DNA of 64,000 nt from an uncultured bacterium (GTDB lineage: Bacteria; Cyanobacteriota; Cyanobacteriia; Cyanobacteriales; CAWCAG01), in NCBI GenBank assembly GCA_964633315.1, contig CAZWGS010000011.1, forward strand, positions 6,879-70,878, written 5' to 3'. Made by a program: the position numbers and the translations under genes. The notes under the pieces are model-generated. The model was not told where the DNA came from. It saw only the letters and a list, made by a program, of their open reading frames with translations, and did not search any database. Shown here one piece after another: positions 1,878 through 56,311 of the stretch (position 1 is the stretch's first letter; each line of letters starts with the position of its first letter).

Positions 1878-2071
1878 CTTTTTTATTACCTCCGTGGCAC
1901 TTCCCCAAGTAGTTTATAAGAAGTTTAAGTTATTTTCCGAGCCCAGGGGCACAATGTTTTTCTCTAACCCAACTGCTAGATTTTTTCCGATTGCAGTAAA
2001 TTACTTTACGCTGTTTGTGTTAAGAATCTGGGAAATTTTGAACCAATTGATCTGGAAAATTGGATCTTTGC

Positions 2072-4729
2072 CTAATCTTCAAAAATGTCCAATTGTTCTA
2101 CCAATTGACGCGAGGATTGAGAATTAACCATCGGCTTTCTTTGGACAATACCTCGACGCAACCCTAGGGCAATTTTACTGTGTTTTTCGATTTGTCCCAT
2201 CACTTGTTTCGCACGTTGAATCACCTGAGGTGGTAAACCTGCTAAACGCCCTGCTTCAATACCATAGGATTTATCAGCACCACCGGGACGCACTTGATGG
2301 AGAAAAACAATTTTTTCTGGTAATTCTTTGACCGTTACTTGATAGTTTGCCACATTGGAGAGAATAGAAGCCAACTCATTTAATTCATGGTAGTGAGTAG
2401 CAAAAATAGTCCGCCCTTGAATTTCCGTAGCTAAATATTCTGCTACCGCCCAAGCTATTGAAAGTCCGTCAAATGTGGCTGTTCCCCGACCAATTTCGTC
2501 GAGTAAAATCAGGGATTTAGCGGTGGCGTGGTTAAGGATATTGGCAGTTTCATTCATTTCTACCATAAACGTAGACTGCCCTGTGGCTAAATCATCCACC
2601 GCCCCCACACGGGTAAAAATGCGGTCACAAATACCCAAATTTGCCTCCCTGGCGGGGACAAAACTACCAGTTTGCGCCATCAGTTGAATTAAACCCACTT
2701 GCCTCAAATAACAGCTTTTGCCGCTAGCATTAGGTCCAGTGAGAATTATCAGATCTGGGTCATTATCTACTTCCGTGCTACCCATTTCAGTAGAATTAGG
2801 CACAAAGAAACCCGCAGGTAGAGATTGTTCCACCACTGGATGCCTACCATCAAGAATTGCTATTTTTCTATGGGCTTGAATCCGGGGACGAGTGTAACCT
2901 TGATATACCGCCACCTCAGCCAAACCAGCCAACACATCTAGCGCCGCTACCGCCTTAGCAATGTTGCGAATTGGTTGGGCAACTTTACCCACCTCCGTAC
3001 GCAGATTAGCAAATAACTCATACTCTAATTTATACAAATCTTCTCGCGCGGTCAGGATACGGGTTTCCCTTTCCTTAAGTTCCGAGGTGATGTAGCGTTC
3101 CTCATTAGTTAGGGTTTGCTTACGAGTATAATCCTCTGGTGCTTGGGCTGCTTTCGAGCGAGGCATACTGATATAGTAGCCAAAGGTTTTGTTATAGCCT
3201 ACCTTCAAAGTATTAACACCAGTGCGCTGACGTTCCCTCACCTCCAAATTTGCCAGCCATTGTTGATCCTCCACCATTAAACGGCGCATTTCATCCAGTT
3301 GGCTATTAATCCCATCCCGAATTAAACCCCCTTCCTTGAGGTGTTGCGGTGGATTTTCCACCAAATGGGCGCTAACGTGTCTCCCCAACTGTTCCAATTC
3401 CGGTGGTACTTTTTGCAACGCCCGCATATAGGGAGAAGAACCATAGGCGGTTAGTTCAGAAAGTTCGCTTAATTTAACCAGAGAGTCAGCTAAAGCCGCT
3501 AAATCCCTTGCATTCGCTGTTCCTGAACCCACACGCCCCGTCAGCCTCTCTAAATCATAAATACCGCGCAATAGATGGCGTAAATCTTCCCGCAGGGCGC
3601 TATTTTCCTTGAGTTCACTAATAGTATCCTGCCTAGCACCAATACCATTAATATCTAGTAGAGGCTGCAATAACCAACGACGCAACGCCCGCCCTCCCAT
3701 CGCCGTCATTGTACGATCTAGCGCCCAGAGAAGGGAACCGTGGAAACTTCCATCTCGCACCGTCTGCATAATTTCTAGGTTACGACGGCTTTGGTGATCT
3801 AAAATCAGATAATCGGCGAGGGCGTAGGTTTTTAAAGGTTGCAAAGGGACATCATGGGCTTTTTGTGTGTCCTCCAAATACTCCAACAAACCACCAGCAG
3901 CCCTCACAGCTAAAGTAAGATGTTCACAACCCATCCCTTCTAGGGAACTCACGCCAAATTTAAACAAAATGCGCTGCTTAGCTTCGCTAGAGTTAAAGTA
4001 TCTTTGGGGACGCAGACAATAGCAAAAAGAATCCGGTAAACAGGGAGGTAAATGTTCGCTAGTTTCCCCTGGACGCAGTAAACCGCCAATATCCGGTGCA
4101 TTAGTTGGCACTAACACCTCAGAAGCTTGCAAACGCTGCAATTCCGCCGTCAACGCCTCCAAATCCCTCCCCTGGGTAGTAAAAAAATCTCCCGTCGAAA
4201 TATCAGCATAAGCCAAACCCCAATGATCCTTGGCGATTACCACCGCCGCCAAAAAATTGTTGCGCCTGGCGGATAGCATCCCCTCATCAGTAAGGGTTCC
4301 CGGAGTTAGTAACTTAGTAATTTGGCGTTCCACCATACGATTTTCCGCCTTCGCCTGATTTGCATCCTCCACTTGATCGCAAATAGCAATGGCATAGCCT
4401 TTTTCCACCAACAAAGTGCTATATTTTTCCAGAGCATGGTGAGGCACACCAGTCATAGCAATACGCCCAATTTCCTTACCCCCATCCTTAGAAGTGCAAA
4501 CCAACTCCAACTCACGGGAAATAATCACCGCATCCTGAAAAAAGCACTCATAAAAGTCACCGCAGCGGTATAACAGTAGTGTGTGGGGATGCTGATCTTT
4601 GAGTTCCGCATAATGTTGCATCATCGGAGTCAGCTTAGCGCGTTGCAAATGCCGATAATCACCGTGGGGCGCTTCTCGTGTGGCGATAGTTGGTTTTTGG
4701 GGCGTAGATTCCGGTTGCACTGCGCTCAT
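2072..4729 (-). CDS. mutS: DNA mismatch repair protein MutS
   Basis: The 885-aa product has the TPMMQHY..LK N-terminal mismatch-binding motif, Walker A GPNASGKS, and [12 protein letters not shown] / THYHEL motifs. Confidence 0.97.
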
Positions 4730-41325: not shown

Positions 41326-44076
41326 TTACTCTGTACATAGAGCATCGCTATTCTCTTCAATATTCTCGAAATCTATGGAATCTGAAGTATCTCGTACTAC
41401 CTTAACTAATCGAGATTCTCTTTGAGGATCACCCGAAGCCCAGAAACGAAGTTCTTCCCCTGATGTTTCATAGCACGAAAGATTGACTTTAGTTAGATTT
41501 TCAAGAACTGTTGCTCGTGTAACATTTTCTGGATCGCTATTGGATATTGCCTCAATAAAAGCCTTAGTTGCATCATAAGCATATGCTGTGCGCCAGTTAA
41601 CTTGATCGTCTTTATCACCGTTATTCCATCTCTTTTTTGCGTCTTTTCCATAAATACTATTATCAGACCAAGCTACAGCTAAAATAAGGTTTTCAACTGC
41701 AACTCCACCATGTGACAAAGTCTCAAGATCATGCAATGCATCACCACCTAATAGTGGCAGCTTTTTAGATTCAGGAAGTTCGTTATTTGCCCTTGCGACA
41801 GCAATAGCAACAGAAGTTGTTTTCACACTAGGTAATAGTACTGCTGCTTGTACTTGATTTTCATCAACAGATTGCTCGATTATGTCTTTTATATCTATTT
41901 CAATATTTTTCAGGTTAATTTGTTGATCAGCATTGCCTCCTAAATTTGTAAATTCATCTTCAAAGGCTTGTTTCAGACTTTTACTGTAAATACTATCAGC
42001 ATCATAAAAAATTATCACTTTTTCAGTCTGTAAAGTATTTTTGGCATACTGAGCAAGCTTCTTACCTGCTAATTCATCTGAAGGAACAGTACGAAAGAAA
42101 ACTTCGCTGTGTAATTCGGTACTAGTACTAGTAGGAGAAATCATAGGAACTTCAACCTTTTCGTACTCTTTTAATGCCACTTCACTCATTTCACTAGATG
42201 TATGTCCAACTACCCCTAAAACTTCTGAACGCCTGGTTAAATCTTTGGCAATTTTCCGAGCTACTTGTTTATCGCTCATATCGTTATTAATAACAATTTC
42301 TAGCAGACGACCTTCGATACCATTTTTTTGATTGAATTTATCTTGTGCATCTGCCACACCTCGTAAAACGTTTTTAGTAGCATGTTCTTCGTAATCTACA
42401 GAAACCACTACAGCTAGCTTAAAGGGAGGATAATCTTGTTGACGAGCCCTCGCATTATTCAGATAAATTTTTGGTTCTGGGTCATTGGGAACAACATTTA
42501 CAGCTTCTTCAAACAGCGTCATTGATCTTTCATAGTTACCATTTTGGAAATCCTTAATTCCCTCATTGAGATCGTAGTTAGCACGGGAACTAAAGAGTCT
42601 TTTCTCTCCACTGCTCATTTCAATTTCTTTACAGGTATTGTTTAATCTGACAGAACCTCGTCCGCAAAAAACTGCACCATAGAACCATGATGTCGTAGCA
42701 ACTATGCCAAGAGTAATAGTAGTGAGGATAAAAACAGCAGTTAACTTCATTTTATTACTTTGTCTTTCTTTCTCTAGAGTTAATTGAGCTGAAGTTTCTT
42801 TCCTTTCCAATTCTTGACTAGCATTAAGAAACTGATAATCCTGACTTTTTAAAGTTTTATCCTCTGCCCACTCTAAAGCTTCCTTGAGTTTTTCTTCTTT
42901 CAGTAGCCATTTATCCTGACGATTAGATTCTAGCCAAGCCTCAATATATTCGGTATAAGGACAGAGTTTTTTCAGTTGTACATTTATCCACTCCTGGTCA
43001 AATATTTCTCCATAAATGCGATTGTAAACTCTCAATTTACCTTGTTGTTTGATGACTAAACCAGATAAACGTAACTTCATCTGTTCAGAACTGTCATTAG
43101 CAGAAATATATCCTTGTTGCAGAATTTGCTGATACAATCCCAGCAATCTACCTAGACATTTTTTGTTTTTTCTGAGGCGATCACGTATTGTCCTAAAATG
43201 CTCTGGATTATCCTGTGATTCCCAATTTTCTATTACTTTAGATCGTACTAACTCCTGTAACCATTCCGTTTCTTCTTCTGGTGGAATATTAGTATTAGTC
43301 TGAACAATAAGCTGACATATTTTTTGGGTTAGAAAAGGCTGTCCTCCAGTCCAAAATAAAACCTCTGCTAATACCTTTCGAGGATTACTTGTTTGATTTA
43401 CTAACCCTGCTGCTAACGGTTCAGCTTCATCTAATTTGAAACCAGAAGGTTCTATGGCTTTACCAATATTAAAAGGAGTACGTTTTTTGTCTTGAATGAA
43501 GTCTGATGGAGTAGCCACTCCTAATAAAGCAAAAGTAAGGCGATTATAGGCTGGATTATCCACTCGCTTATTGTAGCAAGCACGAATAAAAGCAAAGAAA
43601 TCATCAGAAAAAAATCCTAAACTAAGAACAGTCTCAACTTCATCAATGAATATGACTATATTTTGCTTTATTTCTACAAACACAATTTGCTCAAAAAACT
43701 CTCGCAAACGTTGCACAGCAGATAAATTTTCTCGCTCTTCCCACCATTTTCTTCGGGTCGAATATGTCAGTAATTCAAACTCACTTGCTAATTCATGAAA
43801 TATAGCCATGTACAAAGAAATTGAGTTTTCATGATCGCTACCAATTGTTGTGAAATCGATAGCAACACAAATTACTCCTTCTGCTTGCAATCTTTGCATT
43901 GTTTGCACACGCAAGCTAGATTTACCCATTTGGCGTGAGTTCAACACAAAACAAAAATCTCCTGCTTTGAGGTCTTGATATAAGTCTTCATCAGCTTTCC
44001 GTATCACATAACTTGGTGCATCAGCAGCGAGACTACCTCCAACTTGATAATGATATTTAGTCATATCTTGAACCAT
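41326..44076 (-). CDS. AAA_35-like P-loop NTPase fused via one TM helix to a type-1 periplasmic (Leu/Ile/Val-type) binding domain
   Basis: The N-terminus reads YQVGGSL...[11 protein letters not shown], with Walker [11 protein letters not shown] and Walker [11 protein letters not shown] linker ...[23 protein letters not shown] follows, then a TM helix [26 protein letters not shown]. The PBP1 strings are [22 protein letters not shown] and FRTVPSD. Confidence 0.8.
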
Positions 44077-44120
44077 CTTGCATCCCTTTTAAATTTGCTA
44101 AGTATCTGTTTAATTTTGAG

Positions 44121-45416
44121 TTAATAAGAAAGCCTTTCTTTAAAATATTTAGCATACAAATTACAGCGAGGCTTGACATTATTACCCTCAAAAACTGTCA
44201 GTCCCAAACTTTGTAACTTAAACGCTAAGGTTGTCTCTAATCGCACAGGTTCATGGGCTTGCACTACCTGTTTCATTGCTTCTAGTAATTCTGGATATTG
44301 TTGTAGATTCAACCAATGTACTCGTAGATGATGATTATAAATTCCTTCTTCTGTATCTGCTTTTTGCAGCATTTCTTCGAAGAAATTTTGCCTCATCTTC
44401 AGGTAACCGATGGCTTTTTGAACTAGACAAGGATGACCGCCAAGTAAGCAGATAATTTGTTGAACCTGTGAATCATCCCAAATTACTCCTTGTTGACTTG
44501 CCAAAGCCTGTATCTGCTCTGAAGTGAATTCAGGTAATTCGATTGGTACTCCAATATTAAACGGTGAATGATTTTTATCCAGTGGAATGTAAATATCTGT
44601 GGCATGAGCTAGAACAAGTCGTAGTTTTTGCCACAAAGGACGACTTTTTGCTTTTTCATGCCAGCCTCGCAACATTCCTAAGAAGTTATCTGCAAAAGAA
44701 GCATCGAAAATCCTGTCTACTTCATCCAAAGCTAAGACTAAGGGACTATTGATTTTAGGCAGTAGATGTTCCTTAAAATAAATATTACAGTTAGAGACGC
44801 TACTAGAATTATCCATCCAATAATTACTTAGTGCTTCTGATAATTCCAACTGTTGACTAATAACGGTACAAAACCAGCGTAAAAAATCATTTAATGAGCT
44901 AGACATTATCTCGCTTGCATCTTTTAGATCAAGAAATACAATTTGGTAATTTTTTTTTATTGCCTCCACTAGAATCCGGTCAACCAACAAACTTTTTCCC
45001 ATAGACTTAGGAGATTTAATTCGTAGCAGAGAACCGGGTTTAGAAATAGTTTCATAGCAGAGAGATTCAATAGGATATCTCTCAATATAATGTTCAAAGG
45101 TTTGAATTAATTGAGGTGGTGGGTTAGTCGGAGTTGTATAGCTTTCGGTCTTCTCAAAGTCAGCTATTTCTTTCCAGTTCAAACCCAATGCGTAACTAAG
45201 TTCTTGAAAATTGTGAATATTAACAGCTTTGCGATTGAGAAAGCGATTGACAGTGGATAAACATAGTCCTATCACATCTGCTAAATCTTGTTGACTGGCA
45301 AAACCATTTCGTATTACAGCCTGCCTAACACGTTCCTCATGTTGACGAGATATCTTGAGCGATCTTGCTAATCTTGACATAATTCCTTCAGAATCGATTT
45401 CGCCCAAATAATACAC
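44121..45416 (-). CDS. HTH-domain protein fused to an AAA_35-like P-loop NTPase
   Basis: The N-terminal HTH reads SQQDLADVIGLCLSTVNRFLNRK. Walker A is KSPKSMGKSLL and Walker B is LVLALDEVDRIF. The probable start is MSRLARS (45377). Confidence 0.75.
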   Translation of the reverse strand: MYYLGEIDSEGIMSRLARSLKISRQHEERVRQAVIRNGFASQQDLADVIGLCLSTVNRFLNRKAVNIHNFQELSYALGLNWKEIADFEKTESYTTPTNPPPQLIQTFEHYIERYPIESLCYETISKPGSLLRIKSPKSMGKSLLVDRILVEAIKKNYQIVFLDLKDASEIMSSSLNDFLRWFCTVISQQLELSEALSNYWMDNSSSVSNCNIYFKEHLLPKINSPLVLALDEVDRIFDASFADNFLGMLRGWHEKAKSRPLWQKLRLVLAHATDIYIPLDKNHSPFNIGVPIELPEFTSEQIQALASQQGVIWDDSQVQQIICLLGGHPCLVQKAIGYLKMRQNFFEEMLQKADTEEGIYNHHLRVHWLNLQQYPELLEAMKQVVQAHEPVRLETTLAFKLQSLGLTVFEGNNVKPRCNLYAKYFKERLSY

Positions 45417-45572
45417 CGCTTTTTCAGCTAACTAAGGCTACTCACGAATAAGTCACTCACGAGATAAAATTGTTATTAAGTGATGATAAACTTAGCCTGA
45501 TGTGATGTTGCACTGACTCTTTACTCAGTAAACGTCGTGATTTCATGGGATTGTTGAAAAGAAAATAGACCC

Positions 45573-46250
45573 ATGAATAACAAGCAAAAGCTAGGACACT
45601 CTTTCACTTTTAATCTAGCCCAAGAGCAAACTGAAGTAGAGCAGATTAAGTCACAAGATTTTTCCCATCACATTGTTCAAAAACCTGATTTTGACGTTTA
45701 TACCTGTCAGCTAACAGTAATGTTTTGCGATCTTGTGGGTTCAACTGCTCTCTCAGAACAATTAGCCCTTTGTGCTTATTGGAACATACTTCAACAATAC
45801 CAGGAACGTTGCAGTCTTATCATCCAAAATTGTCAAGGCTACATTTCTCAACCTTTAGGTGATGGATTGATGATCTATTTTGGCTTCCCTACTCTCCAAC
45901 AAGATGATGCAACTAGAGCAATACAAGCTGGCTTAGATGTATTATTGGCTATTGAACAACTCAACGTTTTTTTCAAAGAATGGGAAATTAACCTTGCAGT
46001 GCGAGTTGGAATTGCGACAGGAGAAGTATTAATGGCGCAAGTTCATTCTAGTGATAAATCTGAGTGGCTTGCGATTGGAGTAATACCAAATATTGCAGCT
46101 CGACTACAAAGTTTAGCCCCTTCTAACTCTATTGTTTTTTGTCCCAAAACTCATCAATTAGTGAGGGAATGTTTCGACTGTCAATCTTTGGGAGCAAAGA
46201 GTCTTAAAGGAATTTCCCAACCAATGGAAGTATATCAGGTATCCAGATAA
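45573..46250 (+). CDS. Stand-alone class III nucleotidyl (adenylate/guanylate-type) cyclase catalytic domain
   Basis: The metal-binding Asp residues lie in VMFCDLVGST and LGDGLMIYFGFP. The transition-state Asn/Arg lie in IGVIPNIAARLQSLA, and VRVGIATGEV is present. No other domain was seen. Confidence 0.85.
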   Translation: MNNKQKLGHSFTFNLAQEQTEVEQIKSQDFSHHIVQKPDFDVYTCQLTVMFCDLVGSTALSEQLALCAYWNILQQYQERCSLIIQNCQGYISQPLGDGLMIYFGFPTLQQDDATRAIQAGLDVLLAIEQLNVFFKEWEINLAVRVGIATGEVLMAQVHSSDKSEWLAIGVIPNIAARLQSLAPSNSIVFCPKTHQLVRECFDCQSLGAKSLKGISQPMEVYQVSR

Positions 46251-46448
46251 ACCAAAGTTCAACTGGTACACTTTTGCGATCTAACAGTTCACAAAAACTA
46301 ACGCTTAAAACCATTACTGTGACTGTTATACAGCCTTAGAGTAAGGTTGGGTACAATTGCTACTCGACTCCCCAATCTTACTCTTAAGGAACAAATCGCA
46401 CTTTGGTGTCTATCCTGGAGTAAAGCTACTTCCAGGATACTTTAGTTA

Positions 46449-47066
46449 ATGCCAATGCTAATTCCACACCAACTCAAATTACTTGGTTTAGTGAGCACAA
46501 CGATTCTAGTATGCTCCTTTGCCACTCCTCAATCAGAAATGAAGCTGCTACCAAATGCAGTAGTTTCAGCGCAAGAGGAAACAATAGATTCTGAGACTCA
46601 AACATGGCAAGAAATTACTTCCCTGGAAGGCAAATTTAGTGTCATGATGCCAGGAAATCCTTCTGTGGAGTCACCAGGAAATAACCAAGATTCTGCTCAA
46701 TTTTCCTTGCAAACCAAAGGAGGAGAAATTACTTATACAATAACCTACAATACCTTACCCAACCCTGAACGACAGTTAAGTGAGGAACAAGTTAACCTTC
46801 TACTTGATGCAAGTCAGCAAGTACTTATTGGTAATGGTAGATTGTTAGAGAAAATAGATCTCGAACTAGAAGACGATTATATAGCTAGAGAAGTGACAGG
46901 AGTGCGTCCAGAAGGCTCTTTTCAAGCCAGATTTTATTGGGTACATCCACGTCTTTATGTATTGTTAGTAGGAGTAAACACAGGAACCGAATTCCCGCAA
47001 CAGCAAGCACAGGCATTTCTTCGTTCCTTTAGACCCCTAGTAGAAGATAATATTGAGTCACCATAA
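46449..47066 (+). CDS. Hypothetical secreted protein
   Basis: It has an N-terminal hydrophobic signal-like segment (LKLLGLVSTTILVCSFA). I recognised no family. Confidence 0.5.
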   Translation: MPMLIPHQLKLLGLVSTTILVCSFATPQSEMKLLPNAVVSAQEETIDSETQTWQEITSLEGKFSVMMPGNPSVESPGNNQDSAQFSLQTKGGEITYTITYNTLPNPERQLSEEQVNLLLDASQQVLIGNGRLLEKIDLELEDDYIAREVTGVRPEGSFQARFYWVHPRLYVLLVGVNTGTEFPQQQAQAFLRSFRPLVEDNIESP

Positions 47067-47133
47067 TATTTTCCTGATGGCGTAGTCAACAGACTGAGAG
47101 GTGAGAATATACCACTGATAAGGTAAAGTCTCG

Positions 47134-47505
47134 ATGTTGAGTTGGTCAAGAATACGAGGTGTGCTGCTGGGAATTGTCCTTACCTTAGCTTGTCATCTCA
47201 TAGCGATTTCCACCGTTGTGTTAGTTTCTTCTCTCATTTACGGTATTCTCTACATTCACCTCAATCTACTACCGTTCAATGAACATGAAAACTTTTTCTA
47301 TGGTTTTTTGATAACAGCACTAGCAGTTTCTGGAGTTGGTCTCTATCAAGTTCTTTATATCCTACCCTTGAGGCGATGGTGTCGTCACCAAAGACACTAC
47401 GGATTACGTCAGGGAGTAGGAATTGCAGCTATTGTTACTACTGCGGTTAGTGTTTATGGTTTTATTTATGTACTTTGGTATTGGTATACTGCTTCCTTAC
47501 CTTAG
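47134..47505 (+). CDS. Hypothetical small 4-TM membrane protein
   Basis: Four hydrophobic helices fit into 123 aa, and it lies 67 nt after the preceding gene. Confidence 0.5.
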   Translation: MLSWSRIRGVLLGIVLTLACHLIAISTVVLVSSLIYGILYIHLNLLPFNEHENFFYGFLITALAVSGVGLYQVLYILPLRRWCRHQRHYGLRQGVGIAAIVTTAVSVYGFIYVLWYWYTASLP

Positions 47506-47538
47506 GGATTGTGCAACTTAATAGACCTCTGTGTAAGC

Positions 47539-48741
47539 TCACCCACGGCTTAAAGCGCGTGGGCTTTCGCCAACCGCTAAACCTTGGTGTTTTAGTAGCC
47601 CTGAATCCAATGCACAAGACAAAGAATCCGAACCTCGGAGGAGGCTTACGACCCCTCCAATAATAGACAAGACATAGCTTGCGTTTTGATCAGCATCACC
47701 ATGCCAACCGCACTTAGAATTAGTACACTTAAATCTCTTCCCACTTCTCAACCCCAAGTGCATACACCCATGACAAGTTTGAGAGCTGTATCGTGGGGAA
47801 ACTGGGATTACCTCAACTCCGTTAATCAATCCTTTGTATTCAACAAAAGTACGAAGTTGATAGAAAGCCCAAGAATTAGAGCGTCTTCTTTCAGTCTTGC
47901 TCCTAGGTTGTTGGTTGGTTGTGTTTCTAATCCCACTCAGGTCTTCAATAGCCACGATGCTATTAGATTTATGGGCATCAATAATTATGGTTTTGCTGAT
48001 GACATGGTTGACATGGCGTTGAAATCTTTTCTCCCGCCCCGACAGCCGTTTCAACAATTGCCGACATCTACGTCTGCTACTGCGTGTGCCTTTCGAGGCG
48101 CGTTTTTGGAGGTTAGCGCGTTGCTTAGAGTATCTGTCTCTAACATCACGAATTTCTTTGCCAGACCATTTCTGGTTTTGCGAAGTAAATGCTATGTCGG
48201 TGCGCCCAAAATCCACGCCGATAACATTTTCAGATTTAATTGGTTTCGGTGCATCATCCTTAACCTGAATATGAATGTAGTAATTACCATCTCTATGTTT
48301 GCAAAGTTGTGCCGAGGTTGGCTTACTACTTTTAAGTTTTCCAATTTGATAGTTGCTGGTAACGATGGGAATATGTTCTCTACCGCCAACCAAAGTTAGA
48401 CTAACAGACCAGTCTTTCTCGCGAAAAGCAAATATCCGAGCATCATAATCAGCAGATGTCGGCTTGAATGCTTTGACGGGCTTTTTATCTTTCTTAGCGG
48501 TTTTGCGGTTAGCGCCAACCCTCGCGCAAGCCCTGACAGCCAAGTTAGCCGACAAACCGTATCTATCTCTAATAGTTTGATAAACCTGAGATTGAATAGT
48601 AGCTTTGCTAGTTATAGAGGGCTTAACTTCCTGGTTGGCATAGTTACAAGCAGCAGCAAACATCTCAAGAGTAGCGTCAATTTTTGTGACTATTTCTTGA
48701 GAAGGGTTGAGTTTGCAAACTATAGTCAGGACTTGCTTCAT
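47539..48741 (-). CDS. tnpB: IS200/IS605-family TnpB RNA-guided endonuclease-like protein
   Basis: The RuvC triad lies in IGVDFGRTD, IVAIEDLSGI and HGDADQNASYVL. A zinc ribbon CHGC...CTNSKC is present. The start is taken at MKQVLT (48741), because the track's N-terminal extension runs through the end hairpin. Confidence 0.85.
   Translation of the reverse strand: MKQVLTIVCKLNPSQEIVTKIDATLEMFAAACNYANQEVKPSITSKATIQSQVYQTIRDRYGLSANLAVRACARVGANRKTAKKDKKPVKAFKPTSADYDARIFAFREKDWSVSLTLVGGREHIPIVTSNYQIGKLKSSKPTSAQLCKHRDGNYYIHIQVKDDAPKPIKSENVIGVDFGRTDIAFTSQNQKWSGKEIRDVRDRYSKQRANLQKRASKGTRSSRRRCRQLLKRLSGREKRFQRHVNHVISKTIIIDAHKSNSIVAIEDLSGIRNTTNQQPRSKTERRRSNSWAFYQLRTFVEYKGLINGVEVIPVSPRYSSQTCHGCMHLGLRSGKRFKCTNSKCGWHGDADQNASYVLSIIGGVVSLLRGSDSLSCALDSGLLKHQGLAVGESPRALSRG
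47540..47700 (-). ncRNA. Candidate TnpB omega/right-end guide RNA region
   Basis: This is inferred from position (the tnpB 3' end running to the element end) and from the terminal hairpin at 47542-47563. The boundaries are guesses. Confidence 0.35.
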
Positions 48742-48820
48742 GAGCCCGATCGTATCACGAGTGACGGCACTTAAAAGTGCCGAGTCAAAATTCCTCCAAC
48801 GGCTCAAAGCGCGTTGGCTT
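47540..48820. mobile_element. Solo-tnpB IS200/IS605-type (IS1341-like) element without tnpA
   Basis: Same-orientation subterminal hairpins sit at both ends. They are CCCACG-GCTTAAAGCG-CGTGGG (47542-47563) and CCAACG-GCTCAAAGCG-CGTTGG (48796-48817), each followed by GCTT(T/C)C. Confidence 0.7.
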
Positions 48821-49216: not shown

Positions 49217-50272
49217 CTACTGTTTGACAAGGGTAGCGACATCAACGTGAGGCCACATAATCAATTTATCAGGGTCTTGAGAAGTAAAGTCATTGATGAA
49301 CTCAAGAGCTGTTGTTTGAGAATATTGCAATTGCAAGAATTCATTTCCGTTTTCATCCTCAACCTCTTCTATCCAGAAGGTAGATTCAAAGGATGTCGCA
49401 TCGGCATTTTTCTTAATGAATGGAATATTGGAAATTCCGCCTTCATTTTCTGTGGAGACGTTATCCAATACTACCGTTTTCACAAGCTTCTGTTTGTCTA
49501 TAACATCTTGAAGCATTTGGTTAGGATTGGATGGAACGAAGGGCGGAACACCTTCAGCTCTTAGATAAGGAGTATTGTATCCTAGTCCGAGAGCTGGTCG
49601 GTCGAGAGCAGGCAAACCCTGAATGGCTGGGATTTGGAAATTTCCTTCTGTCTCAAAATATTTTCCTATTGCTAATAGGGAATCTCCGTGAGGAATTGAT
49701 GAGAGCCGCGATACAATTTTCTTTTCCTTATCCAACAACAACCACATCCCATTTTCTATATGAAGCGGTTGAAATGTGTTAGCGTCGCTCACTACTTGCT
49801 GGTAATGCAAACCGACGACAAATGTATCGATAGGAAATCCCCGGTTAGGAACTGGCGCACCAATAGGAGTGAAAGTTAAGGTCTCTACATAGGGCATAAT
49901 TTCTACGCAAAAGCTCTCATTATCATCCTTGGGAAGCCTTCCGGGACATCCAACACTATTACGAGGAAGTCTGCTGTTAATGGGAACGGCGATCATATTC
50001 CATCCCTTTCCTACCCAGGTACCTGCTAAATCTTTCAGGGGACCTAAATCGTCTACTGTATCTGTTGTCTCATCTGAGAGACGAAGGAAATTAGGCGGTA
50101 GCTTTTGAGAAGGAGATTCAAGAGACTCCAGGATCAATTTATCGATAAGCTCTTTTCCGATAGGCTCTTTCTCGATAATATCTGGTGATGCCTGCTCTTC
50201 AGCCATTGCGGTTAATGGGTTACCAATCAAAATGGTAAGTAGGATTAAACAAGACAGAAGAATTTTTTTCAT
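49217..50272 (-). CDS. Secreted protein, possibly a nitrobindin/FABP-like heme-binding beta-barrel family member
   Basis: It has a signal peptide (ILLSCLILLTILIGNPLTAMA). The spaced pattern LAGTWVGKGW ... ETLTFTP ... VGLHYQQ ... PLHIENGMW resembles the G.W.G.G / E...F / Y.Q / H.E.G pattern of that fold. The function is uncertain. Confidence 0.4.
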   Translation of the reverse strand: MKKILLSCLILLTILIGNPLTAMAEEQASPDIIEKEPIGKELIDKLILESLESPSQKLPPNFLRLSDETTDTVDDLGPLKDLAGTWVGKGWNMIAVPINSRLPRNSVGCPGRLPKDDNESFCVEIMPYVETLTFTPIGAPVPNRGFPIDTFVVGLHYQQVVSDANTFQPLHIENGMWLLLDKEKKIVSRLSSIPHGDSLLAIGKYFETEGNFQIPAIQGLPALDRPALGLGYNTPYLRAEGVPPFVPSNPNQMLQDVIDKQKLVKTVVLDNVSTENEGGISNIPFIKKNADATSFESTFWIEEVEDENGNEFLQLQYSQTTALEFINDFTSQDPDKLIMWPHVDVATLVKQ

Positions 50273-50652: not shown

Positions 50653-51879
50653 TTACACTAGCCACTCTTCAACAGCTTCTTCCTTTGTATTGGTATTGCG
50701 TGAAGGTGTCTCGCGGTTAAACTTCATGTGAATGGAACGAGTTTGTTCACCATCAGCAGCTACTGCCATGATGGGATAATCAATCAAACCATCCTGGAAG
50801 GACATATGGAAGCGGAAAGTACCATCGGGATTGAGTTTAATTGGTTGTCCGCCAATGGTAACAGTTGCATCGGGTTCTGTTGCACCGTAAACAATTAGTT
50901 CTGCATCAGCAACTAACCAGAATTTGCGAGGGCGTATCGGAGGTGCAGAAGCGGAGAAACCAGACATACCCACACCGGACATATTTAAGCCAGAAGCGGT
51001 GGGAACTGCCCACATACCTACGCCAGAGGGGAAGACGTAGGAACTAACAGCTTGCTGCGGAACCATGGAACCGGGAACATGTTGCATAGAACCGAATAGA
51101 GAACCTGCAACGCGTTGTGCTTCTACTGATTCTGCCATACCGAAAATTTCGTCGTAGATCGCATTTTCGGTAGCAGGCGCTTTCTTGCTGGGGGGAACCA
51201 GGGTAAACACAGTTTTGCCTTTGAGATCCTCATCCCAGTTAACGGTGATGAAGTGGTCTTCAATCCAGTCGGAAGGATAAACAGGAGGAACACGAACAAT
51301 ATCGGAGTTGGCTAAAACTAACCAGCGACCATCAGCACAGCGATAGCCAATTTCTAGCATATAATCGCGATCGCTAACGGGGATGGGTAGATACCATTCT
51401 CTTGCTAACTCATCACAAGGAAACTCTTGTAGGCTGTGGGGACTTTGAACAGTGAGATCAATGTCGGTTACATCGTAGAGACGTAGGGCGATTTGCTGTC
51501 CTCCCTGACGGCGCAAATCTTCCTTGTGTTCGTTAGGAATATCCCAGTAAGTGTAGCACCACTGAGGATCGCGAGGCATGAGGACGATGCGGCTTTCTCC
51601 GTAGCCATGGGGTAAATCCGCTAGTCCTTCGTCCACTGATGCTAAGGTACCGCCTGTACGATCTTCTTGACCTAGTTCAAATTTAGATGCTTCCACCGCT
51701 TCTTTTTCCTCCAAACTGCTAAATTTACTATGTGAGAGCTTTTCACTTTCTGCTTTTTTTACCGCAGCCAGTAATTGCGATTTACGCATCCGACTGTAAC
51801 GAGAGATATTAAATTCACTGGCAACTTTACGAAGCTGCCGTAAAGTCATTTCTTCAAAAGGTGGGCGTTCTTTTGCCAT
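50653..51879 (-). CDS. DUF4912-domain protein with an N-terminal Rho_N/SAP-like helix pair
   Basis: MTLRQLRKVASEFNISRYSRMRKSQLLAAV is Rho_N-like. IVLMPRDPQWCYTYWDIP is the DUF4912 start. Confidence 0.8.
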   Translation of the reverse strand: MAKERPPFEEMTLRQLRKVASEFNISRYSRMRKSQLLAAVKKAESEKLSHSKFSSLEEKEAVEASKFELGQEDRTGGTLASVDEGLADLPHGYGESRIVLMPRDPQWCYTYWDIPNEHKEDLRRQGGQQIALRLYDVTDIDLTVQSPHSLQEFPCDELAREWYLPIPVSDRDYMLEIGYRCADGRWLVLANSDIVRVPPVYPSDWIEDHFITVNWDEDLKGKTVFTLVPPSKKAPATENAIYDEIFGMAESVEAQRVAGSLFGSMQHVPGSMVPQQAVSSYVFPSGVGMWAVPTASGLNMSGVGMSGFSASAPPIRPRKFWLVADAELIVYGATEPDATVTIGGQPIKLNPDGTFRFHMSFQDGLIDYPIMAVAADGEQTRSIHMKFNRETPSRNTNTKEEAVEEWLV

Positions 51880-53251: not shown

Positions 53252-56200
53252 CTAAACAACTTCTAAATCCACTTGGAATACAAAGTCATTAAAGTCTCCG
53301 TCACCCAAACCTAATTCATCTTCAAAGGCAAAGAAATTATCTCCCAACAGTACCAGATGATCTAAACCATCGGCATTAGCTTCGAGGAAAGGAGAGTAGA
53401 ATTGATCGATATCGCCATCGCTAAGAAGATAAGGTGCATAGAGGAAACCACCAAATAGCGTTGTTGGTTCAGGATTAATTAGGCTGAACTCTACCACACT
53501 ATTATTAACAGCAGCTTGGGCATAACCCTCGTCTCCGGGAGTGAATAATTGTCCTGTTACAGGATCGAAAACTGTACCTGCTTCATCCAAAATGGTGTAC
53601 AAACCACCCACATTACCGAAACCAGCTTCTTCAGTGGCATTAATTGTGGCTGATATCAGTTCTCCTGATTGTTCACTGAGATCAATTAACTCAATTTCTC
53701 CCTGAAGTCCAGTTCCTATTGGCAAGCTTTCTTCAACAACTGCAACATTAACTACGAGATCGTTAAAGTCTTCGCCTGCGCCATCTTCAAAGCCAAGAGT
53801 GAAGCTACCATCTCCCACAGCACTAAAATCTACGCTGTTGGCAATTAAGACGCTATCAAGTAAGCTAGAGTCTGCCAATACCGCATCAGTAGTGGTGTCA
53901 GCTACTACATAGAAGCCGATTTCTTGTCCTGCGCTTAAACCGTCGATAATGCGTCCAGAAGTGGTAAAACCTCTATCTGCAAGAAACTCTTGAGAGGTGC
54001 TTGAAAGGGAAGAGAAAATTACTTCACCACTTTCTAGAATATCGGTAACACTTTGTCCGGGCTCAACAATATAGGTACCAATTTCATTGACGAAGTCTGC
54101 ATCTACACTTTCTAGCAGGAACTGAAGAGTTACTTCTGGATCGTTACCGCCAAGGATAAATGTATCATCGTCAGTTAGCTCCAGACTAGCAGGGACGAAG
54201 TCTTCATCGGTGGTAATAGTACCTACTACAGCTGAATCTGTACCAACGGTGTAGTCTGGATCTGGTGTTAGAGTAAGAGCAATAGTTTCGTCTGGTTCAG
54301 CAATGTCATCTGCCACTGGAGTTATGCTAATAGTGCCAGTGTTAGTACCTGGAACCAAACTACTAATACCATCAATACGTGCACTACCAATATCAGTTCC
54401 AGCTAAGTCTGCGTCACCTAAAAACTCAGCAAATTCAGCGGAAACCAGCAAGTCAGCTTCGCTAATCGAGAGACTATCTATAGTGGTATCAACATCTCCT
54501 GGATCGCCAATATCAAAGAGAATAAGATCGGTGTCTAAAGTATCTTCAACAAAGAAACCACTAGCAAGATCCGTATCCCTTGTAGCGTCAAAACCAATGG
54601 AGAAGTTACCTACATTGGCAGTACCTAGGGCATTAGTGAGGTCAATTGAGCCAGTGTGCTCAATGGTACCTTCTAGAGGTGTTAAACCATTTTCTAGATT
54701 ATAGGTAAAGTCTGTTGCCTCAGCAATAGTGAAGCCTACAGCAGTTTCACCATCGGGGAAACCATCGGTATTAGCATCTACAGTACCTTCAGTTCCGGTA
54801 ACAGTAATGCCTAGAGTAGCTAGAAGTGCTGTATCGAGTCCAACACTGGTAACACCAGAGTCAAGGTCAAATTCTGTAGCCTCAATTTCAATGCTACCGC
54901 TACTGGCATCGAAGGTAAATGTGCTGTCGCTGGTTACAGTGTAATCTTCATCAAGGGTTGCTGTTCCGTCAACGCCGAAGTTTACTGTCAGGTCTTCGTC
55001 AAGGATACCATCAACACTGAAAGTGTAGACCAGGCTTTCTAAACCATCTTCGACTACCGCTTCTGGTGCTACTGCAAGGTTAACAATTGGTCCTGGTGCT
55101 TCGTCAATAACCAATTGTCCTCGAATCTCTCCTGCGGGGAAAGCTTCGGTGTGAATATTCCAGTAGAAGGGTACTTCTTCACCTTCTTCTGCTTCGCGGA
55201 ATGTCTCAACAAAGTTACTTAGGGAAATGGTATTGGGGTCAGTTTCTTCCCAAACTCCTGTTAAAGTAACAGTACCATCGTCATTGAGGACAATTTCGAA
55301 ATCATCGGCATCTTGATCATCGTACTGGGAAGCAACTAGGTCAATCAAACCAAGGACAATGGGACCATTTTCTCCACTGGGTGCATTATGAATGTGGACT
55401 CTGGTAACATCATCCTCGGTGGTTTCTGTAAAAGCTGTACCATCACCGATAAAGGCACCAAAATCCAAACCATCTACTGTTAGGCTGTATTCTAGGGCAT
55501 CACCTGCAGCGTTAAGGGTTAGGATAGAAGTGCCTGTGGCGCTGCTACCGGAAGGAGTAACTTCTTGATCGCCACTTAAAGTAGATTCTATAGCTACTGG
55601 TTCTGATACCGCCACAGCATCAGCAAAGGCGATATTAATGGTGGCGAGAGTGTAATCGGGTTGGGTAAAATCAGCGTTGGCAAAGTTGGGATCATCTAAA
55701 ATACCACCACTACCAGGAGGTAAGAATCCTGTTGTCGCTGTGGTAACAACACCATTTTCATCCACACCTGTATTTGGTGCAGCTTGTCCGAAAAAGGCTG
55801 TATTTGCAGGTATTTCGTCGTTAACTTCCGTACCTGCATCCCGTACTAGGTTACCAGTGACGGTGATAGTTGCACCTTCTTCAGGATCGCCAAGGAAGTT
55901 ACCATCATCGTCAAAGACTTCAAAACGCAAGGGGTTACCGTTACCGACGAAAAAGTCGTTACTCGGTAGCACCATTGAAGCGTAGCTAAAGTAATTGCTG
56001 GTGGGATCATTAGGATCTACCGTGAAGTTAAAAGATACTGTCTCGCCCACATCCAAAGGACCAGGAGCATCACCTTCTAAACCAGGAATGGTAAAATCAA
56101 TTCCTGCATTCTCATCGTTAGAGAAGGCAGCATTTAAAGGACCTGCATTACCATCCTCTGCGATTTGCTCAATAAAAGCAAAATCAGGAAAAATTGACTC

Positions 56201-56311
56201 ATCGAGATTATAAAGATCAAATTCGCCATTATGAAAACCTACCCAGACTGGAGTGAGTAGAGTACCGTTTTCTGGCGCTACATTGGTGATTGTGACTGTT
56301 AATGTTTCCAT
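53252..56311 (-). CDS. Large acidic multidomain protein: spondin_N-like, CHRD, Calx-beta-like repeats and two DUF4114-like domains
   Basis: The spondin-like start is TITNVAPENGTLLTPVWVGFHNGEFDLY...IAEDGN. The CHRD domain reads LSGDQEVTP...VHIHNAPSGENGPIV...WNIHTEAFPAGEIRGQL. The Calx-beta strings are VNFGVDGTATLDEDYTV and ...AEPDETIALTL. The DUF4114 strings are GFEDGAGEDFNDLVV and FEDELGLGDGDFNDFVF. There is no signal peptide, and an in-frame TAG lies 3 codons upstream of the ATG. Confidence 0.8.
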   Translation of the reverse strand: METLTVTITNVAPENGTLLTPVWVGFHNGEFDLYNLDESIFPDFAFIEQIAEDGNAGPLNAAFSNDENAGIDFTIPGLEGDAPGPLDVGETVSFNFTVDPNDPTSNYFSYASMVLPSNDFFVGNGNPLRFEVFDDDGNFLGDPEEGATITVTGNLVRDAGTEVNDEIPANTAFFGQAAPNTGVDENGVVTTATTGFLPPGSGGILDDPNFANADFTQPDYTLATINIAFADAVAVSEPVAIESTLSGDQEVTPSGSSATGTSILTLNAAGDALEYSLTVDGLDFGAFIGDGTAFTETTEDDVTRVHIHNAPSGENGPIVLGLIDLVASQYDDQDADDFEIVLNDDGTVTLTGVWEETDPNTISLSNFVETFREAEEGEEVPFYWNIHTEAFPAGEIRGQLVIDEAPGPIVNLAVAPEAVVEDGLESLVYTFSVDGILDEDLTVNFGVDGTATLDEDYTVTSDSTFTFDASSGSIEIEATEFDLDSGVTSVGLDTALLATLGITVTGTEGTVDANTDGFPDGETAVGFTIAEATDFTYNLENGLTPLEGTIEHTGSIDLTNALGTANVGNFSIGFDATRDTDLASGFFVEDTLDTDLILFDIGDPGDVDTTIDSLSISEADLLVSAEFAEFLGDADLAGTDIGSARIDGISSLVPGTNTGTISITPVADDIAEPDETIALTLTPDPDYTVGTDSAVVGTITTDEDFVPASLELTDDDTFILGGNDPEVTLQFLLESVDADFVNEIGTYIVEPGQSVTDILESGEVIFSSLSSTSQEFLADRGFTTSGRIIDGLSAGQEIGFYVVADTTTDAVLADSSLLDSVLIANSVDFSAVGDGSFTLGFEDGAGEDFNDLVVNVAVVEESLPIGTGLQGEIELIDLSEQSGELISATINATEEAGFGNVGGLYTILDEAGTVFDPVTGQLFTPGDEGYAQAAVNNSVVEFSLINPEPTTLFGGFLYAPYLLSDGDIDQFYSPFLEANADGLDHLVLLGDNFFAFEDELGLGDGDFNDFVFQVDLEVV

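Follow-up and report, generated by a model that had tools for sequence, protein, structure and literature searches.

A candidate split transmembrane STAND receptor pair divergent from a class III cyclase gene in an uncultured cyanobacterium

Transcriptional regulators of the MalT, AfsR and GutR type combine a helix-turn-helix (HTH) domain, a nucleoside triphosphatase (NTPase) of the STAND class (signal transduction ATPases with numerous domains) and a sensor, and in these regulators ligand-controlled oligomerisation governs transcription. Comparable parts, divided among neighbouring genes, are found in a stretch of 64,000 nt from an uncultured cyanobacterium (assembly GCA_964633315.1, contig CAZWGS010000011.1, positions 6,879 to 70,878). 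This whole stretch is called the window here, and all unlabelled coordinates are window positions. Two tandem genes encode paralogous AAA_35 NTPases, one headed by an HTH (gene A) and one with a transmembrane (TM) helix and a type I periplasmic binding protein (PBP1) domain (gene B), and a stand-alone class III nucleotide cyclase gene lies divergent from them (Table 1). The reading that we favour, with a confidence that stops a little short of even, is that a split transmembrane STAND receptor and its HTH-bearing partner control a variable divergent output gene, which is a cyclase here. The observations behind it are the domains themselves, a widely conserved A-B unit, a STAND fold modelled for A, a TM segment that most B proteins have, the intact catalytic residues of the cyclase, and the recurrence of the three-gene layout (the triad) and of an intergenic motif.

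The locus differs from the MalT, AfsR and GutR type in that its N-terminal XRE-type HTH lies on another polypeptide than the sensor, there are two NTPases, and the predicted place of the sensor is outside the cytoplasm. With STAND proteins of the MNS clade (MJ-type, Npun2340-2341 and SSO-type; Pfam AAA_35 and Arch_ATPase, including cyanobacterial HTH-TIR-AAA_35 proteins named 'molecular chaperone Tir') it has in common the AAA_35 profile, the fold of A and the motifs, and it is also like them in its variable N-terminal outputs and C-terminal repeat sensors. In contrast to those proteins, output and sensor are placed here on two tandem paralogous NTPases, of which the sensor-bearing one is predicted to cross the membrane. 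The family name 'Npun2340/2341', read as a name alone, suggests that adjacent genes had already been noticed in 2004.

The preliminary description of this DNA likened the locus to multidomain proteins of the mycobacterial Rv0386 type. For the cyclase domain this is a real evolutionary affinity, since the cyclase falls in a clade of cyclase-AAA_16(STAND)-TPR fusions; it is in the same clade as the Rv0386-type proteins (42-50% identity) and has in common with them a Gln at the substrate-specifying Lys position. Rv0386 reportedly uses Gln and Asn at its substrate-specifying positions. The likeness does not extend to the neighbouring NTPases, which are AAA_35 and not AAA_16, and cyclase, NTPase and HTH are here three separate genes, with a free cyclase of 225 residues. 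Pycsar and Pucsar systems likewise have a small stand-alone class III cyclase near a small multi-TM protein, and the window cyclase scores 64.5 bits on the PADLOC profile PycC, which is not above its score of 69 bits on the generic Pfam profile. Their effectors, however, have a domain binding cyclic nucleoside monophosphates (cNMP) fused to TIR or to three TM helices, which is absent from the neighbours in the window, and in sequence comparisons cyclases of the CyaB type and those fused to STAND modules come nearer to the window cyclase than the solved cytidylate cyclase does. Membership in Pycsar or Pucsar was therefore rejected on two grounds, the lack of a cNMP-binding neighbour and PycC scores without discriminating power.

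In plants, the sensor/helper pairs of nucleotide-binding leucine-rich repeat (NLR) receptors, such as RGA5/RGA4 and RRS1/RPS4, are cytosolic, eukaryotic and usually encoded head-to-head. By analogy the present pair resembles them, as adjacent STAND paralogues divided into a recognition and an output module; the differences are that they belong to another STAND clade, and that the genes here are in tandem with a sensor partner that would span the membrane. The EACC1/EACC2-caspase and TRADD-N systems have a constant core and variable C-termini, including TM segments with extracellular CHASE2 or PBP domains, and they occasionally have an HTH as output, 'pointing to a transcriptional response' (Kaur 2020, PMC7159879; Kaur 2021, PMC8195603). 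Loci related to ours have a CyanoTRADDas_TM neighbour in common with these systems, whereas the core here is the AAA_35 pair and the window locus is without EAD, caspase, TIR or TRADD-N domains.

The AAA_35 pair is not named in the main texts of Kaur 2020, Kaur 2021 or a 2026 survey of STAND proteins. In open-access full text nothing was found for PF14516 and only noise for AAA_35 by name, and no description was found there of output and sensor being divided between tandem AAA_35 paralogues, of a membrane-spanning partner or of a divergent cyclase. The parts are all of known families (MNS-clade STAND, class III cyclase, type I PBP, TnpB) and the design logic is known from related cyanobacterial conflict systems; with the design known and the arrangement not found described, the interest of the locus is moderate.

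The tandem NTPase genes

Distinct contexts of gene A were compiled from cyclase orthologues, a genome scan, A homologues and cyanobacterial plasmids, giving 17 in all; the scan of genome contigs used exact-peptide patterns of gene A and gave seven loci. (Loci are cited by L numbers where they have to be told apart.) In 14 of these contexts the next gene after A, on the same strand, is a B orthologue, whose roughly 450 N-terminal residues are 38-63% identical to those of window B; over its first 460 residues, window B is 51-63% identical to the second gene of the pair in 12 other loci. B is close to A but rearranged in two more contexts (L012, L108), and no B was seen in the remaining one (L106). 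Spacing between the two genes runs, in most contexts, from overlap (by 4 nt) to a gap of about 135 nt, and L013 has a wider one. Among the hosts are Xenococcaceae, Symploca, Moorena, Lusitaniella, Leptolyngbya and Calothrix, with one member of the Saprospiraceae (Bacteroidota), and the pair is found on chromosomes and on plasmids.

The two AAA_35 genes are the conserved, robust unit of the locus, and their architectures are complementary, A having a variable N-terminal output and no sensor, and B a variable C-terminal sensor and no output. No third partner common to all pair loci was found, and their neighbours are otherwise unrelated. Where a five-gene module had been proposed in the preliminary description, and conservation of its neighbourhood put forward as a check, the A-B unit holds up and the cyclase accompanies it in two lineages only (four of the 17 contexts). 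The genes for a 205-residue and a 123-residue protein beyond the cyclase drop out, as they recur only in the near-identical L008 among the loci fetched. The focus is thus on three genes and an intergenic region, not on five genes.

Gene B matches AAA_35 at 100.6 bits (1e-28, cut-off 27) and has the motifs SRQMGKSS (Walker A), IFIDEVE (Walker B) and GGQPFLT (GxP), which are invariant or conservative in 10 orthologues. Its TM helix has a Kyte-Doolittle score of 1.81 in a 19-residue window and a K/R-rich flank of net charge +2 on the N side, and the protein is accordingly predicted to be N-in/C-out, with an extracytoplasmic sensor. The sensor scores 94.9 bits on Peripla_BP_6 (1e-26, cut-off 31.7), and its best PDB matches (4mlc, 4gnr and 3td9, E 4e-13 to 5e-12) are all branched-chain or amino-acid binding proteins. 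Such a single helix, with K/R residues enriched on its N side, was seen in 13 of the 15 B proteins compared, and the C-termini beyond it vary between loci: PBP1 in the window, CHASE2 in L012 and L013, RlpA-like DPBB/DPBB_1 in L104, WD40 in L014, L015 and L019, and TPR in L006, L020 and L021. PBP1, CHASE2 and RlpA-like DPBB are domains acting outside the cytoplasm. In most members of the B family the sensor is predicted to face the periplasm, so that a predicted outside sensor is a trait of the family; the suggestion that the sensor of this locus had been moved outside the cell is retained as a predicted placement and dropped as a peculiarity of the window. The B proteins of L107 (7465-9540, Calothrix brevissima plasmid5) and L108 (1-2922) are TM-less, and that of L107 has an H-box-like stretch, LSQELRTPITSI, with Gln at the phospho-accepting His position of histidine kinases.

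Gene A matches AAA_35 at 421.7 bits (2e-126, cut-off 27), and a sequence search with it against the PDB gave no match. The HTH attributed to it in the preliminary description remains under the Pfam cut-off (18 bits vs 22, with sub-threshold matches to HTH_24 and HTH_26) but is borne out by the homologues, which score HTH_3, HTH_19 or HTH_26, and by an AlphaFold2 model built on a 55-sequence alignment (mean predicted local distance difference test, pLDDT, 85.8). In the model the HTH domain is followed by a disordered linker (residues 89-102), an NTPase domain (110-295), a helical domain with GGHP (299-352) and a winged helix (361-429). The top Foldseek matches of the model in the PDB are the archaeal Walker-type ATPases 2qen (1.7e-10) and 2fna (2.6e-10), and next come Avs3 (7e-8), CED-4 (9e-8), ORC/Cdc6, NRC4, Roq1 and Apaf-1. 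As modelled, gene A fits the MNS clade as a STAND module. Its Walker A (SMGKS) and Walker B (LALDEVD) motifs are present, and in the 55 sequences G140, K141, D231, G327 and H328 are invariant and P329 is nearly so. The start is probably Met13 (ATG at 45380), where alignments with orthologues begin and before which the model is disordered (residues 1-16); the spacer between A and the cyclase would then be 192 nt.

There are 775 homologues of gene A at E<1e-10, mostly cyanobacterial XRE-HTH and AAA_35 proteins of 410-450 residues, and the JGI name of most is 'transcriptional regulator with XRE-family HTH domain'. Other N-termini also occur among the relatives, namely a large HTH-TIR-AAA_35 subgroup, EAD4, and EAD11-TIR (L015). 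Type A genes were found on 38 cyanobacterial plasmids, and no gene A relatives were found on viral contigs. In L008 the counterpart of window A (44121-45416) is called at 499 residues (1980-3479), with a longer N-terminus and 65% identity; gene A appears, from these identities, to be evolving faster than the other genes that L008 has in common with the window, or to have been exchanged. A 613-residue protein in L017 (8815-10656) is headed by an XRE-type HTH that is 41% identical to gene A residues 16-122, and also has a weak TIR_2 match and a Methyltransf_33 domain, which indicates that this HTH is a mobile N-terminal module not confined to AAA_35 proteins.

The divergent cyclase and its link to the pair

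The cyclase scores 69 bits on Guanylate_cyc (5e-19, cut-off 21.9), and its best PDB match is the adenylate cyclase CyaB (3r5g, 1e-21), with the solved cytidylate cyclase 8jsf at 2e-5. Residues were assigned by alignment to 3r5g. The metal-binding Asp53 and Asp97, together with Arg144, Asn173 and Arg177, are invariant in alignments with orthologues and AAA_16-fused relatives, and the enzyme is probably catalytically active. The canonical substrate-specifying pair is Lys/Asp or Lys/Thr for ATP and of the Glu/Cys type for GTP. Here the positions are held by Gln93 and Leu166, which are invariant in the cyclase clade and its AAA_16-fused relatives, and the nucleotide preference is therefore not readable from sequence. 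No regulatory domain was found in the cyclase by Pfam, and its N-terminal extension, which ranges from 0 to about 70 residues, is not conserved in the clade.

Nine close relatives of the cyclase have 50-90% identity to it, and beyond them the nearest are cyclase domains fused to AAA_16. A further 80 metagenomic relatives (38-48% identity) lie mostly in STAND-fusion frames of 1100-1270 residues, none with AAA_35 neighbours, and the six that were scanned have a Zn-ribbon or SAM domain followed by cyclase, AAA_16 and TPR, and no HTH. In terms of sequence relationship, the cyclase is a free-standing offshoot of the STAND-fused clade. Its closest relatives on plasmids (42% identity) are Sinorhizobium meliloti megaplasmid cyclases (hits H1-H20, e.g. 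NC_003037.1 1012708-1013259); several of the rhizobial plasmid matches are without a listed feature, although the plasmid gene tables are incomplete.

Only two lineages, paralogous to each other, have the cyclase next to the pair. One includes L008, a near copy of the window locus (B 84%, cyclase 90%, 205-residue protein 86%, 123-residue protein 90%, but A 65%). The triads of L006/L007 and L009 contain orthologues of A (58-60%), of the NTPase module of B (60-63%) and of the cyclase (54-63%), with the divergent layout kept and with TPR as the B sensor in place of TM-PBP1. Alignments of the intergenic region show several blocks common to the orthologous triads. The whole triad intergenic region, including the block on the side of the A start, is also kept beside a lone cyclase orthologue (63% identity) in L010 (1860-2090), where a DUF928 gene stands in the place expected for the NTPase pair and an AAA_35 gene is not within reach. 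Retention of the region without the pair suggests that the linkage is ancestral to that group and that the pair was lost in L010. On the opposite strand from the cyclase in L006 (10559-12773) and L009 (4156-8086), and adjoining it, are genes for a DUF6996/DUF6997/DUF7226 protein and a D12-class DNA methyltransferase, beside which L009 also has a group II intron reverse transcriptase (RVT_N, RVT_1, GIIM, HNH).

A 15-nt motif, TGACTTATTGTTTAG, is found at a fixed distance of about 60-80 nt upstream of A starts, in the same orientation as A, in independent cyanobacterial loci. Exact copies are present in L006/L007 (L006 9812), L009 (3428), the independent L019 (8922) and L010 (1904); two mismatches are seen in L020 (8926) and L008, three in L021, L102 (7926) and the window, and a 1-nt insertion in L104 (about 1585). 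Chance would be expected to give about 0.002 exact copies of a 15-mer in the roughly 1 Mb searched, whereas at three mismatches or fewer there were 28 matches vs 12-24 in shuffles. A weaker second copy lies 44 bp off in L006 and L009, and a further conserved block, ATGATTTGAGCAAAA, is nearer to the A start codon than TGACTTATTGTTTAG.

In three related loci the position that the cyclase has in the window is occupied by another gene, encoding a small CyanoTRADDas_TM protein (PF20712, cut-off 24.3 bits): L020 (8452-8784, 32.5 bits), L102/L103 (L102 7524-7808, 69.3 bits) and L104 (1188-1649, 29.9 bits). The definition of this family comes from TRADD-N systems predicted to act in conflict. The motif and the recurrence of such genes together suggest, without proving it, that the pair controls a slot, divergent from A, in which the output gene varies.

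Weighing the explanations

In the reading that we favour, gene B would be a single-pass receptor with a cytoplasmic AAA_35 module, one TM helix and an extracytoplasmic LIVBP-like domain. A ligand, probably a periplasmic solute, would bind B on the outside and lead to NTP-dependent association of the NTPase modules of B and A, which in turn would switch the DNA-binding activity of A. Within the divergent promoter region, the conserved 15-nt site would be where A binds, and by binding there A would control its own operon and the divergent output slot, including transcription of the cyclase. Being minimal and sensor-less, the cyclase would have its activity set mainly by its abundance, and would yield a cyclic nucleotide. 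The genes for the 205- and 123-residue proteins downstream may share its transcript, with no functional tie.

A wider proposal, which we regard as possible and distinctly less probable than the reading above, is that tandem AAA_35 genes form a bacterial pair resembling the sensor and helper NLRs, in which a membrane STAND receptor co-oligomerises with a cytosolic STAND protein and the divergent position is a slot for swappable effectors. B would then read its ligand through an exchangeable PBP1, CHASE2, DPBB, WD40 or TPR domain, and the N-terminus of the partner would give a transcriptional (HTH) or a lethal (TIR) output.

Several points weigh against control of the divergent gene by the A-B pair. 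The copy of the motif in the window is the poorest, and its level of three mismatches is by itself not above chance; the motif could also be a mere promoter element of the A-B operon. The cyclase is missing from 13 of the 17 pair contexts, and in three of eight contexts of the cyclase clade (L001, L003, L011) there is no trace of the pair and the surroundings are unrelated. The four triad loci amount to two paralogous groups, so that the independent support is thin, and shared descent alone could preserve the layout. The TM segment is absent in two plasmid-borne B proteins (L107, L108), and the topology of gene B is predicted from hydropathy and the positive-inside rule only. Finally, in the HTH-TIR-AAA_35 relatives the HTH stands alongside an enzymatic effector, so the HTH may serve autoregulation and not output.

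Taken further, the distribution of the genes would mean that the pair is self-contained, and that the cyclase and the 205- and 123-residue genes are functionally unrelated to it and adjacent in one lineage; we consider this improbable, at perhaps one chance in a handful. It agrees with the many pair contexts that have no cyclase and unrelated neighbours, with the four of eight cyclase contexts that have no pair, and with the recurrence of the two orphan genes in near-identical copies only. It does not sit well with a layout and intergenic blocks that persist at 54-63% protein identity and across a swap of the B sensor, with the lone cyclase of L010 that retains the intergenic region and an exact copy of the motif, or with a particular small gene turning up again and again divergent from related pairs.

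Equally improbable in our estimate is a role in conflict, programmed death or defence, which the preliminary description had also raised, and in which an NLR-like pair would act with a divergent operon of effectors, the cyclase as source of an alarm nucleotide and the envelope damaged by the small membrane protein, on the model of Pycsar/Pucsar or of the CyanoTRADDas_TM partners of related pairs. TIR, EAD4 or EAD11 are present in close paralogues of A, and predicted conflict systems typically have such modules (Kaur 2020, PMC7159879; Kaur 2021, PMC8195603); the MNS/Npun2340-2341 STAND clade is named in such systems (Kaur 2021, PMC8195603). Also in keeping with this role are the CyanoTRADDas_TM genes in the divergent slot of three related loci, the occurrence of type A genes on plasmids, the score of 64 bits on PycC, the slightly lower guanine plus cytosine (G+C) content at 42-46 kb and the TnpB gene next door. 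The PycC score, however, does not exceed the generic Pfam score and the match to 8jsf is far behind that to CyaB, and no neighbour has the cNMP-binding domain found in Pycsar and Pucsar effectors. Gene A, gene B and the two small proteins have no significant PADLOC match (B gave only a marginal one to mad8, E 0.004), window A is without an enzymatic effector, and CyanoTRADDas_TM is not matched by the 123-residue protein. PBP1 and CHASE2, as sensors of periplasmic solutes, suit environmental sensing better than phage detection; in addition, the surroundings are housekeeping genes (MutS, DnaX, ComEC, ChlB, PyrB, PepA) and not a defence island, and a search of viral contigs gave no relatives.

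Least probable is a split cyclase-STAND fusion with no transcriptional role, in which the free cyclase would be drawn to an oligomer of the A and B NTPases and there be driven into dimers of its catalytic domains, as the attached STAND module presumably does in cyclase-AAA_16-TPR proteins. In its favour, beyond the small clade the nearest relatives are almost all cyclase-AAA_16-TPR proteins of about 1100-1270 residues with the same unusual Gln93 and Leu166, and the triad layout is preserved in two lineages, but the NTPases here are AAA_35 and not AAA_16, the cyclase has no conserved adaptor and a variable N-terminal extension, close orthologues of it occur without an AAA_35 neighbour, and the HTH of A would be left without a role.

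Surroundings and meaning of the locus

All six open reading frames (ORFs) described for this region were recovered by ORF calling, with spacers of 44 nt between A and B and of 156 nt between A and the cyclase, in exact agreement with the layout given in the preliminary description. Coordinates are collected in Table 1.

Table 1. Features of the locus and their positions in the window
Feature	Position	Strand	Basis or remark
Gene B, AAA_35 NTPase, TM and PBP1, 916 residues	41326..44076	-	ORF; Pfam
Gene B sensor, LIVBP-like PBP domain (residues 568-895)	41392..42375	-	Peripla_BP_6, ANF_receptor, Peripla_BP_5; PDB
Gene B predicted TM helix (residues 445-465)	42682..42744	-	Hydropathy
Gene B NTPase module (residues 14-360)	42997..44037	-	Pfam; motifs
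Gene A, XRE-HTH and AAA_35 NTPase, 431 residues as called	44121..45416	-	ORF; Pfam
Gene A STAND module (modelled)	44130..45095	-	AlphaFold, Foldseek
Gene A HTH domain (residues 17-88)	45153..45368	-	AlphaFold pLDDT about 80-92; HTH matches of homologues
Divergent intergenic region, conserved blocks	45417..45572	.	Alignments with orthologous triads and pair-less locus L010
Copy of the 15-nt motif, 3 mismatches	45441..45455	-	Candidate operator or promoter element
Stand-alone class III nucleotide cyclase, 225 residues, catalytic domain residues 46-223	45573..46250	+	ORF; Guanylate_cyc
205-residue orphan protein, N-terminal hydrophobic segment	46449..47066	+	ORF; hydropathy
123-residue orphan membrane protein, 3-4 TM helices	47134..47505	+	ORF; hydropathy
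TnpB (IS200/IS605-type RNA-guided nuclease), 422 residues; neighbour outside the system	47539..48807	-	Pfam OrfB_IS605, Cas12f1-like_TNB; NCBIfam

Position is what ties the 205- and 123-residue genes to any module. Neither protein has a Pfam match even at E<=1 or a PADLOC match at E<=0.01, and the 205-residue protein has none in NCBIfam. It has only three relatives among 5.8 billion proteins (79-86% identical), and AlphaFold on the four sequences gave a pLDDT of 32.9 and no usable fold. Its one hydrophobic segment, at residues 9-27, fits either a signal peptide or a signal anchor by hydropathy, so that of the secreted protein proposed in the preliminary description the hydrophobic N-terminus is borne out and secretion is one of two compatible outcomes. 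The 123-residue protein, described there as having four TM helices, is a membrane protein with three hydropathy peaks, of which the first (residues 9-41) could accommodate two helices, giving 3-4 in all; only 13 marginal matches to it (E 1e-5 to 8e-4) were found among 1.84 billion representatives.

The TnpB noted just past the last gene is borne out by its Pfam domains and by NCBIfam, which names the protein guided_TnpB (9e-52). The end of tnpB is only 33 nt (47506-47538) from the stop of the convergent 123-residue gene, so the 3' end of the element and its omega-RNA should abut or enter that gene. A 237-residue antisense ORF within tnpB (47686-48399) is probably spurious. Further along the minus strand are a secreted-looking protein of 351 residues with an N-terminal hydrophobic leader (49217-50272) and a weak match, at the cut-off, to a THAP4-like haem-binding beta-barrel (25.3 bits), a 408-residue Rho_N and DUF4912 protein (50653-51879), and a 1019-residue protein with CHRD and DUF4114 domains (53252-56311).

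The flanks of the window are ordinary cyanobacterial chromosome genes (ChlB-like, PyrB-like, MutS, DnaX, ComEC and PepA), and the G+C content dips slightly over the NTPase genes at 42-46 kb (0.36-0.37 vs about 0.40-0.44). An Rfam search of the window gave no match. A scan for promoters and terminators was uninformative, with fewer promoter-like sites than in shuffles and no terminator among the three plus-strand genes.

For the window the proposed chain would run from a periplasmic solute to the NTPase pair, from there to the 15-nt site, and finally to a minimal cyclase. STAND and NLR proteins are known as cytosolic sensors, and a membrane-hung STAND protein passing its signal to a sensor-less STAND partner would, if true, widen this picture. 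It would also, if true, add a route of signal transduction distinct from the two-component, one-component and extracytoplasmic function (ECF) classes, and give prokaryotes a counterpart to the sensor/helper split of plant NLRs.

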